Source of the DNA: Schmidtea polychroa
Taxonomy: Eukaryota
Direction of reading: 5' to 3'
Length of the DNA: 64,000 nucleotides
Assembly (NCBI GenBank): GCA_044892525.1
Contig: CM097886.1
Location: 5,704,001-5,768,000, forward strand
The notes under the pieces were generated by a model. The model did no database searches and was not told the DNA's origin. It saw only the letters and a list, made by a program, of their open reading frames with translations. Of this stretch, positions 12,001 through 14,508 are shown piece after piece (positions within the stretch are counted from its first letter, which is position 1; each line of letters begins with the position of its first letter). A program made the translations under genes and the position numbers.

Positions 12001-14508
12001 TTTTTCTTTTTTATGGAATTATATGCTTAGATAAAATATCGCTACGGACAGCTGATATCTTAAAATATCTTATTTTCTGTCTCATACTCTCTAGTGCTGG
12101 CCTAACTTTAAAACATGTGGAGAAAACTTGAGGATCAACATTTCCATCAAATAATAAATTGCCATTATCATAAAAATTTCGATATATATCTCATTTTCTA
12201 TTTATATTTCTAATAAGCTTACGCCATTTTCCTCTAATAAAGCTTCTCTTTCAGCTGAAATGCCATGTTAGTATAATTGTTAAGAAAAATAATTGATGAA
12301 TTCATTCACAAAACTCTAATTTTTCAAATTTAATTTAGTTTTACAAAATTTTAAAACGTATTGTAAAAAGCAGATAAAACAAATATCGTTCACATGACAG
12401 AATATTCATTAATGTCTATTTTATTATAAGAACTTTTATTTCTTCCAATTTCACCACTGATTATTTTTTCCATTGAATTTATTAAAAAGAGAGTTTGAAG
12501 ACTATAAATCAGTAATATATCGATGTTTGTTGATACTCACGAATTTTCGGCACTGCCTTTTTCAAGTGAAATTCACTTGAAAAAGGCAGTGCCGAAAATT
12601 CATGAGTATCAAAAAACATCGATATATTACTGATGTTTCCGACGATTTTGGCGTGGCTTTTGTATCGCGTCTGTGTGCGCGGTTGTTAGACAGGTTAGTG
12701 TGCGCACACAGACGCGAGAAGTAGGTTTTGGTAATTTTATATTAGAGTTTTGAAAATGTTAGTTTTGTAGAATCGATTTATGTTTCTGGAAGAATAGAAT
12801 TTGTTTTACGAGGAGGATTTTTGGATGTTTTTGAAAATGGAGTTTGATCGTGTCATTGGAAATGAATTGATACATGATGATGATGTATATTCTTACAAAT
12901 ATAAAGTAGAAATTCAAAATATGTTCAATAACACAATTCGTTCATTTGATTTCCCCAAATCTGACAATTTCAAAATGAAAAACTCTTGTACATTTTCTAA
13001 TATCATCCAAGATTTCGAAAATCTTAAACAATCGTCGGAAAATGTTATTAAATCATCTGGTGAATATTATGACACTTCTATTAGACAAAGTGTTGACAGA
13101 ATAATTGCTGCAAAAGATAGTGCTATATATGCTGCTGGAACTCCGTTTAGAATTACAAGTCAAACCATAGATTTTTGGTCAAATGCCACTAATAGTTTTG
13201 TTCATCGTTTCATGTCCAAAGAATAATAAAGCAGAATATGGAACTGCCGAAAAGAAGAAATATGATATTCTATTTAATCGAGCTCTTAAAAGGATAAACA
13301 CAATTCAAATGTTTGCTAGCAAAAGTGTTGAACAATTATCCAATGTTTTGAATTCAATATACGATCAATCAGTGACAAAAAACAAAGAATGGTTGAAACA
13401 ATATTATGATGACTTCACAGATGAAATGAAAACAGTTGTGTTGGATTATATTTCTAAAGTTAATAAAGAAAGTCTGCTTCTGGGTATTAATGTTTTCTGT
13501 AAACAACTGATTTATAGTCTTTAATGTCTATTTGAGAAAGGAAGAAAAATGAAAATAGCTGAATATTGAAATATGATCAAAAATAGATTAGCTGGCTTCG
13601 AGGATCAAGACCTTGATACAGAACGATTAGCGAAAGTTTCAAAAGCAGTGAAAGATCCTTTTGCAAGCTATAATATCATTTATGAGGAAATGAAAAATGT
13701 TACAAGGCAAACAACACTGAACGAGCACATTAATAAATATAATTAATATCAATATGTATCTGAATAAATAATAATTTCTATAAATAATGTTTTCTTAATT
13801 AAATGTAAGTCCATTTTATTTTTAACTATCCTGTTAAACTGATATCTTATTTAATAAAATTGCATAATTTTAATTTTTATTCGACTTAGACGACTTCTCG
13901 GAATGAATTAATCATGTAATTTATTATATTTATTAATATTATTTTGTTAATATGCTATAAAATATGTATAATAAATTTTATTAAAATTAAATTGAAATAC
14001 TAAATTAACCTAGAATTAAAATTTGACATTTTCGAAGGGAATGATTTCGATTTGGCATTGTCTGAAAAAGAAAAACAATGAGAAAGATCTACTAAATTAA
14101 CTTTCAACCGTTTAAAATTTTTACTATTTTTGGGTATTTCTGAAATTTTACATAATAAAAGCTTTCATACTCCATCAGAACGGTTTCAAGATCAACATTG
14201 TCACATACTTCATATTTCTGAAAATCCAGTGTACATTCCTTTGTAAATGTGTTGAATGTTTCAATGTAGCTACAATGTAGATTTTGATATAAAAAATTTG
14301 ATATATTGTTTATAAACAGATATTTCATTTACCCTTCATCGTTAAAATATTGCATAATTAAGACAAGTAAATTCCGTTTACGAGTTTCGCTTTTCAATTC
14401 TGACTATTAAACCAAATATTTATTATTTATAACAATGGTAGGAAAAGTATTTACAGATTCTCTAGCTTGACTTGCTACTTTCATCATTTGATAGTTTAAT
14501 TCAGCCAT
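3063..14508 (-). CDS. KATNAL2: Katanin p60 ATPase subunit A-like 2 (multi-exon; last ~130 aa not visible)
   Basis: GT-AG exons: 14455-14508 ([10 protein letters not shown]..), 14333-14403, ~14118-14269 ([30 protein letters not shown]), ~10634-10728, 10352-~10600 (GQIID), 6010-6087, 5497-5595, 5379-5442, 3313-3431 (Walker A GPPGTGKT), 3063-3265 ([15 protein letters not shown]). Internal junctions near 10600-14120 are approximate. Confidence 0.95.
3713..4347 (+). mobile_element. Internally deleted hAT element with transposase C-terminal remnant
   Basis: TIR TAGGG(T/C)CCYC, perfect 8-bp TSD ATTATAAT, remnant [18 protein letters not shown]. Confidence 0.85.
4430..4741. mobile_element. hAT (Charlie-type) MITE
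   Basis: TIR YAGTGATTCCCAA, 8-bp TSD GTCTAAAT on both sides. Confidence 0.9.
4871..5002. repeat. Foldback/palindromic MITE, same family as 12498-13521 and ~26880-26945
   Basis: Arms TATTTATTATAAAGCTTGACTAT...ATCGATGTT and its reverse complement. Confidence 0.7.
6541..6761. mobile_element. Small inverted-repeat element (MITE-like)
   Basis: ~29-bp inverted termini ATTCGTGTTAAATAAAT(C)AAAAATATTGA. Confidence 0.5.
8025..8300 (-). mobile_element. PIF1-family helicase C-terminal remnant (Helentron/Helitron2-like)
   Basis: [19 protein letters not shown]...[35 protein letters not shown] resembles the C-terminal PIF1 motifs (FPL.LAWA.T.HK.QG.T; GQAYVALSR.RSL). Confidence 0.8.
9248..9875. mobile_element. 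piggyBac-type MITE containing a nested hAT MITE
   Basis: TTAA|CCCTTAATTGCA ... TGCAATTAAGGG|TTAA. Confidence 0.85.
9285..9684. mobile_element. hAT MITE nested in the piggyBac MITE
   Basis: TIR TAGGGTTACCACC / GGTGGTAAGCCTA; TSD AATATACC/AACATACC (7/8). Confidence 0.8.
11470..12250 (-). mobile_element. Degraded hAT transposase (dimerization-domain region)
   Basis: [29 protein letters not shown] resembles the hAT motif S..SERVFS.AG.....R.RL....L.FL; multiple stops. Confidence 0.6.
12634..13505 (+). mobile_element. 872-bp solo LTR-like unit (BEL/Pao family) with internal coding cargo
   Basis: TGTTT...AAACA termini, perfect 5-bp TSD ACTGA (12629-12633, 13506-13510), and the same 16-bp hairpin (12665-12680/12702-12717) as the LTR at 1896. 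Confidence 0.85.
12855..13480 (+). pseudogene. Intronless perilipin-like coding fragment inside the solo LTR (one frameshift near 13212)
   Basis: ORFs 12801-13226 and 13183-13524 join via a 1-nt shift to give [32 protein letters not shown]...FVHRFMPK...[23 protein letters not shown]. This resembles recalled perilipin PAT-domain end, VDxYLP and helical-bundle motifs; similarity is weak. Confidence 0.4.
13560..13746 (+). mobile_element. pogo/Tigger transposase C-terminal remnant
   Basis: [44 protein letters not shown] vs recalled Tigger1-type FEAQDPNVERYTKVAAAVQNAIQCYRVIYDEKKRATTQTSLDRF. Confidence 0.7.

Follow-up and report, generated by a model that had tools for sequence, protein, structure and literature searches.

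Long terminal repeats of a young BEL/Pao family that probably carry patchworks of host mRNA in frame with ubiquitin and Gag

Positions 12634-13505 of the window, the whole 64-kb stretch of DNA analysed here, hold a long terminal repeat (LTR) whose interior reads as host-like protein, which raises the question of how such cargo came to lie within an LTR and what it does there. In our assessment, the interior is probably a patchwork of host mRNA that opens a cargo-ubiquitin-Gag(-Pol) ORF and was likely acquired by RT template switching.

The unit is a solo LTR of 872 bp on the forward strand (TGTTT...AAACA), with TG at 12634 and CA at 13504-13505, no PBS behind it and no PPT before it. It is flanked by one 5-bp target-site duplication (TSD), ACTGA, at 12629-12633 and 13506-13510, and like units occur as twin repeats elsewhere. 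The insertion target was a palindromic MITE-like element with 63-nt arms that are 97% complementary. Its left arm and the first part of its right arm occupy 12498-12633, and the remainder of the interrupted right arm follows the LTR at 13506-13521, starting with the 3′ TSD copy. The reverse complement of the intact left arm provides the empty site with a single ACTGA. The first-pass annotation had proposed a TG...CA solo LTR with a perfect TSD inside a palindromic MITE arm; the termini, the TSD copies, the empty site and the palindrome that resumes past the insert bear this out. Directly past the MITE, we also observed a 58-aa frame without a Pfam match (13570-13746, +).

Within the LTR, the family hairpin (12665-12717, +; 17-bp stem, variable spacer, folding z −3.0) precedes a T/G-rich leader (12718-12836, +). 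The kinship of this 5′ part to the LTR starting at 1896 was confirmed by a hairpin match with E 3e-8 and a leader score of 38 against 5 ± 8 in 200 shuffles, and the extent of that sister LTR, given earlier as 1896-2833, was corrected to 1896-2757 (+). The sister LTR carries SNF8/EAP30 and proteasome cargo and lies behind a PPT as the 3′ LTR of a tandem array; the 3′ part of the 1153-aa cargo-ubiquitin-Gag ORF of the sister element is located at 3-1709 (+). Window positions 1-2757 form the last unit of this array (L125:1963-9901), which has three LTRs and two 1153-aa ORFs. Its first two LTRs are 100% identical over 1,500 nt, including the sequence after them, and the array has one TSD, CTTAT.

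The interior of the solo LTR contains two ORFs, 12798-13226 (142 aa) and 13171-13524 (117 aa), which had rightly been read as a single frame with a break near 13216. In four of the 17 closest copies, the frame stays open for 235-262 codons as far as the LTR end. The 23 nt spanning the break were absent from every other fetched locus, and a 15-nt core was also present in L028 and L029; the frameshift is best read as local decay.

Pfam searches with both ORFs gave no perilipin match, only weak unrelated ones. A natural unbroken copy (L013, 227 aa) matched one protein, P0001 (346 aa, Pfam perilipin, E 9e-65), the C-terminal part of which located the host perilipin gene (L061) with its two exons and 46-nt GT-AG intron. 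Window positions 12837-13025 matched P0002 (442 aa, no Pfam), leading to an unnamed host gene X (L236), which has no Pfam family; its host locus came from the protein search, and a DNA search with the gene X piece returned LTR copies only. JAB-domain starts in sister LTRs pointed to an MPN/MitMem_reg gene with introns (L246), which we take to be eIF3f-like.

Aligned to these donors, the LTR interior is a mosaic of three host genes present in the same genome, stitched in frame, with all pieces on the forward strand. It begins with an ATG in host-like context and a 12-nt eIF3f-like scrap (12837-12859, the scrap itself at 12848-12859), which is longer in L102, L237 and L242. The piece of gene X (12858-13033) is identical to L236 1684-1859 at 166 of 176 positions (94%), and the piece of perilipin exon 2 (13024-13432), which holds the frameshift near 13216, is identical to L061 1097-1504 at 393 of 409 (96%). 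A C-terminal eIF3f-like scrap (13422-13471; L246 from 1614) shows 87.5% identity over 40 nt with E 8e-10, while eIF3f-like blocks in sister LTRs reach 100-220 nt at 91-96% identity. The LTR end (13472-13505) contributes its CA as codon positions 1-2 of the frame that crosses the PBS in whole elements. The hairpin motif is absent from all three donor loci. The first-pass annotation had described a single perilipin-like cargo of ~600 nt, captured from a host transcript. Capture is supported by the three donor loci and perilipin was correct; a single source was not, with perilipin accounting for 409 of about 635 nt and gene X and eIF3f-like pieces for other parts. The eIF3f capture probably came first, was then hollowed out by gene X and later overwritten by perilipin. 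We must also note that the host perilipin locus is an inverted duplicate (L061/L062 on C1, about 88 kb apart, 99.7% over 3,308 nt), either real or an assembly artefact. The cargo of L178, L180 and L191 joins a start that is presumably Hsp90-like, judged by an N-terminal motif without a Pfam match, to eIF3f-like and gene X pieces.

The donor pieces in 12634-13505 each lie within single exons, and the evidence for intron loss comes from sister LTRs. Six of these cross the perilipin exon 1/exon 2 border, and the 46-nt intron is missing in all six; the join is exact in four (L073, L074, L076, L078), the others having a base change at the join or a small rearrangement. Because the exons are joined without the intron, the perilipin source is a spliced mRNA, which answers for perilipin the earlier question of whether cargo maps to spliced host transcripts. 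Among 97 loci with either piece, perilipin and gene X meet in eight junction types, two of which may be one event. Seven types are in frame, including all six present at several loci. The shared stretches measure 10, 2, 0, 10, 2, 3, 3 and 2 nt, compared to a random mean of 0.83, and about 20,000 random pairs contained no 10-nt run; four of the eight junctions share merely 0-2 nt, which counts against template switching. At the three joins of the 12634-13505 subtype, the donors share 2, 10 and 8 nt, the last at the perilipin/eIF3f join. Most perilipin 5′ captures start a few bases ahead of the perilipin ATG, and the ATG contexts in the window, perilipin and eIF3f are alike and A-rich. At individual loci, we noticed 52 additional letters in a contig of organism B at L156:2204-2206, as if a donor intron had been lost in the LTR; flanking 5-mers of L010:1496-2367 that are reverse complements, not direct repeats; an inverted LTR start at the right end of L076:1278-3178; and an LTR of a different subtype of the same family nested within a window-type LTR (L011:2315-3268).

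Whole elements were sought at 39 of 92 PPT places, which were fetched, and in the upstream flank of the window. Six loci (L091, L107, L110, L114, L115, L124) have twin LTRs that are 96-100% identical including the cargo, with PBS and 5-bp TSD. The scanned ORFs of the PPT-derived elements contain ubiquitin and DUF1759, and RT is absent there. From the listed matches to Pao RNase H (at least 150), 20 loci were chosen with long open frames favoured; the family PBS was present in 19 and twin LTRs in 18. In four of the 20, a single ORF of 2121-2238 aa starts in the 5′ LTR and crosses the PBS, ubiquitin and a YxDD motif; Pfam ordered the 2189- and 2121-aa ORFs (L156, L159) as ubiquitin, DUF1759, RVT_1, Peptidase_A17 and DUF5641. 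The cargos of these four elements differ from one another. LTRs measure 0.6-1.2 kb and elements 4-8 kb with long ORFs, the full ones about 7.7-7.9 kb. A 5-bp TSD is a BEL/Pao feature, and the suggested BEL/Pao assignment agrees with the twin LTRs, PBS, PPT, TSD and a single ORF holding Gag DUF1759, RT, Peptidase_A17 and DUF5641. The full RT ORFs and the RT-less ubiquitin-DUF1759 elements show that this young BEL/Pao family comprises both autonomous and gag-only members. A TRIM, by definition a very short, non-coding LTR element, was ruled out by the LTR and element sizes and the long ORFs.

The 12634-13505 subtype is linked to the family interior by a decayed example, L021, which lies directly behind the family PPT and a gag-like remnant. 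An intact whole element with exactly the 12634-13505 cargo was not found, which counts against the main reading; of the perilipin LTRs, those with a PBS behind them (L248-L250) are decayed, and the sole 3′ LTR of the subtype (L021/L100) is truncated. The 64-kb window contained no tRNA genes.

The 781-Mb assembly was searched for family members. A DNA search with 12634-13505 gave 1,584 candidates; among the 40 scored, eight cover all 872 nt, namely the window copy and seven at 92-95%, and five of the eight have a perfect 5-bp TSD. Many copies of this LTR are located in (AAT)n tracts. The hairpin arm had 5,513 exact matches, with several arms possible per LTR, against none for the reversed control, while the PBS 16-mer had 430 and one PPT-plus-LTR-start pattern 92. 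Cargo was surveyed over the first 12 Mb of C1, at successive hairpin places (59 loci, 62 units; Pfam cut-offs 0.01 and 1e-4, three duplicate units left out). The LTR ORF contained a host Pfam family at 28 of the 59 loci (proteasome, Ras, EAP30, RING, DSPc, cofilin, WD40), and perilipin, gene X or eIF3f pieces at 10 further loci raise host cargo to 38 of 59. Cargo changes by lineage (proteasome, Rab, SNF8, RING, DUSP, CCT, cofilin), is identical between both LTRs of one element, and includes TCP-1 and DEAD pieces in other copies. The idea of a variable cargo behind a conserved hairpin thus holds across the surveyed part of C1, and the family LTRs do not share one constant interior. Host cargo also occurs past the PBS: a DEAD-box piece, which we take to be eIF4A-like, lies between PBS and ubiquitin at L073:2357-2790.

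At the sequence level, the cargo is the in-frame N-terminal part of the cargo-ubiquitin-Gag(-Pol) ORF and not a passive slot. The frame that crosses the PBS toward ubiquitin and Gag is the longest one upstream of all 20 distinct LTR/PBS junctions; it is open for at least 150 codons on both sides in eight of them, the other frames never. In the ordered C1 sample, where 42 of 62 units have no definable 3′ end, the Gag frame was the longest at all 20 definable LTR ends (mean 119 codons vs 22 and 4). The second ORF of 12634-13505 (13171-13524) lies in this frame. Of 33 distinct copies, 26 have an open AT-rich linker from PBS to ubiquitin; stops in the three frames number 18, 125 and 211. We also observed a conserved splice-donor-like site (AAG|GTAATT or AAG|GTATTA) 40 nt into the PBS region (L031, L073, L087-L175), ahead of the intron-like, stop-free linker; such a site could change the frame used, which speaks against the main reading.

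Private cargo changes relative to the host genes comprised 278 nonsynonymous (N), 78 synonymous (S) and 22 stop changes (n = 378; pN/pS 0.91), and those common to at least three copies 53 N, 20 S and no stops; the two classes were compared for stops (p 0.034) and for N/S (p 0.36). Because shared mutations avoid stops and not amino-acid change, it seems to be the open frame that is selected, and the cargo protein at most weakly. Two findings on these changes also count against the main reading. Changes in at least five copies have a pN/pS of 0.43, possibly through some protein-level constraint or through change on the host branch, and both indels common to three copies are frameshifts.

Directly before Gag lies a ubiquitin unit whose final Gly-Gly stands in non-canonical contexts (LRLCGG, LGLAGG). 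By analogy, host enzymes likely cut the cargo patchwork off at ubiquitin; these contexts count against cleavage, as does the lack of GG in the first ubiquitin of some copies. A homolog search with linker-ubiquitin-Gag gave, among 120 listed of 345 matches, ubiquitin-domain proteins at 12-28% query cover and none with DUF1759. Contigs from runs merely guessed to be RNA contained donor-like and element-like pieces, from which start, strand and level are not readable, and none bridged cargo and Gag.

In the course that we consider most likely, transcription would start somewhere in the 5′ ~200 nt of the LTR, and ribosomes would initiate at the captured host ATG. During synthesis across the LTR portion of the element RNA, RT likely switches to a co-packaged mRNA, such that both LTRs would inherit the piece. 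Only frame-keeping captures would still make Gag or escape decay, and hence spread, whereas out-of-frame ones would die out. Gag would be released from the preceding cargo by host deubiquitinases acting behind the Gly-Gly; with this cut, the protein sequence that the cargo encodes would hardly matter, and one cargo could freely replace another. The solo copy at 12634-13505 would be a product of LTR-LTR recombination that decayed afterwards.

The cargo might instead matter as protein, with released fragments of proteasome, ESCRT, Rab, E3 ligase, chaperonin and lipid-droplet proteins serving the element as decoys or targeting tags. Proteostasis and trafficking genes are indeed abundant, proteasome pieces recur across many lineages, the pN/pS of 0.43 in widely shared changes would fit, and Burro elements, in the portion of PMC6431247 considered, also contain ubiquitin- and apoptosis-related domains. 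Nevertheless, we regard this as unlikely: the domains are truncated at different places, and other genes have been written over them (gene X and then perilipin over eIF3f), N/S of shared changes is no different from private ones (p 0.36), and autonomous copies thrive with quite different cargo. Less probable still is camouflage at the RNA level, whereby piRNA silencing of the LTR would hit essential genes and the open frame would merely avoid nonsense-mediated decay. The cargo is 94-96% identical to housekeeping-type mRNAs and in sense orientation relative to the LTR ORF, and part of 10.1101/777037 describes a similar conflict for maize TEs; however, the frame that is kept is specifically that of Gag, through a stop-poor AT-rich linker. 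A more far-reaching version is in our view rather doubtful. In it, an active retrotransposon would have made its LTR a self-renewing in-frame exon-shuffling cassette; host start codons and domain fragments, once captured, would be expressed as a leader, which ubiquitin cleavage would release and selection would favour as decoys or as a piRNA shield, and thousands of solo LTRs would seed promoter-plus-chimeric-ORF units, a source of new genes.

It is very hard to uphold that a DNA-level capturer (Pack-MULE/Pack-TIR, Helitron-like) or a chimeric processed pseudogene resembling an LTR formed the unit, even though most copies are solitary, with 5-bp inverted ends, an internal hairpin and many insertions in (AAT)n tracts. 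Twin repeats around gag-pol with PBS, PPT and 5-bp TSD contradict it, as does intron loss, and the 12634-13505 subtype was found directly behind the family PPT. Pack-MULEs are DNA transposons with long TIRs, 8-11 bp TSDs and genomic capture that keeps introns. A Pack-MULE/Pack-TIR was ruled out by the 5-bp inverted ends, the 5-bp TSD and the missing intron. The analogy to Pack-MULEs drawn at first sight stands for the outcome, many copies with shuffled host gene fragments, and falls for the mechanism, because RT template switching is indicated by the missing intron, the brief identities at the joins, the PBS/PPT and the 5-bp TSD. We read the process as LTR-mediated capture of mRNA that has moved into the LTR itself and is joined to Gag.

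Compared with known systems, as portions of the cited papers describe them, BEL/Pao LTR retrotransposons, among them the Flow superfamily of cnidarians and a planarian (PMC3118150), share TG...CA LTRs, PBS, PPT, a length of about 7.7-7.9 kb and one gag-pol ORF with DUF1759, RT, Pao RNase H and DUF5641. The ORF of our family differs in starting about 200 codons inside the LTR and in placing ubiquitin and host mosaics ahead of Gag; in the main text of PMC3118150, ubiquitin is nowhere mentioned. LTR-mediated retroposition (Tan et al. 2016, PMC5131818), including maize Bs1 cited there, shares spliced mRNA pieces, short identity at switch points, multi-gene chimeras and further amplification. In those cases, the retrocopy takes the place of some of the internal ORF sequence and the resulting copies are non-autonomous, whereas here the cargo lies in both LTRs, in frame with Gag, gag-pol can be complete, and solo LTRs spread it. 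Cytopathic BVDV (PMC8310069) likewise fuses a host mRNA piece and ubiquitin into a polyprotein before a functional protein, and host hydrolases cut behind the inserted ubiquitin; it is a sporadic event in an RNA virus, in contrast to a fixed trait of a retrotransposon family with cleavage predicted from sequence. The giant Burro/GYPSM1 elements of planarians (PMC6431247) share host-like domains, including a ubiquitin/SUMO-like one, in the polyprotein; they are old 30-kb Gypsy elements with the extra domains behind Gag, while ours are BEL/Pao, recent, exchangeable and LTR-encoded. In the parts of the literature covered, including PMC11410931 and 10.64898/2025.12.11.693146, host mosaics in BEL/Pao LTRs are not described.

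Hundreds of copies lie in one genome together with their donors, which makes the family a large natural record of RT switching onto host mRNA. Known examples of LTR-mediated capture are scattered and have usually left the element disabled; in this family, the capture sits in the LTR of copies that remain autonomous, and the chimera is therefore written twice per retrotransposition and kept by each solo LTR. It likewise documents the choice of packaged mRNAs and the way in which a variable leader can be separated from a conserved protein by ubiquitin. The family is an annotation hazard too, through inflated gene counts and confused read mapping for perilipin, eIF3f, proteasome, Rab and other genes.

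Elsewhere in the window, a 479-aa ORF at 41451-42890 (-) presumably encodes a LOTUS/Tudor (TDRD5/7-like) protein. Exon-like ORFs at 2813-3277, 29161-30435, 35419-35727 and 57084-57440 (all -) resemble a katanin-type AAA ATPase, EFR3 and an FtsJ/Trm7 methyltransferase. Four TE-like fragments were also present, which we take to be Penelope-like RT/GIY-YIG (45285-46829, +), hAT-like (52918-53508, +), Polinton capsid-like (63443-64000, +) and polB-like (39300-39617, -).
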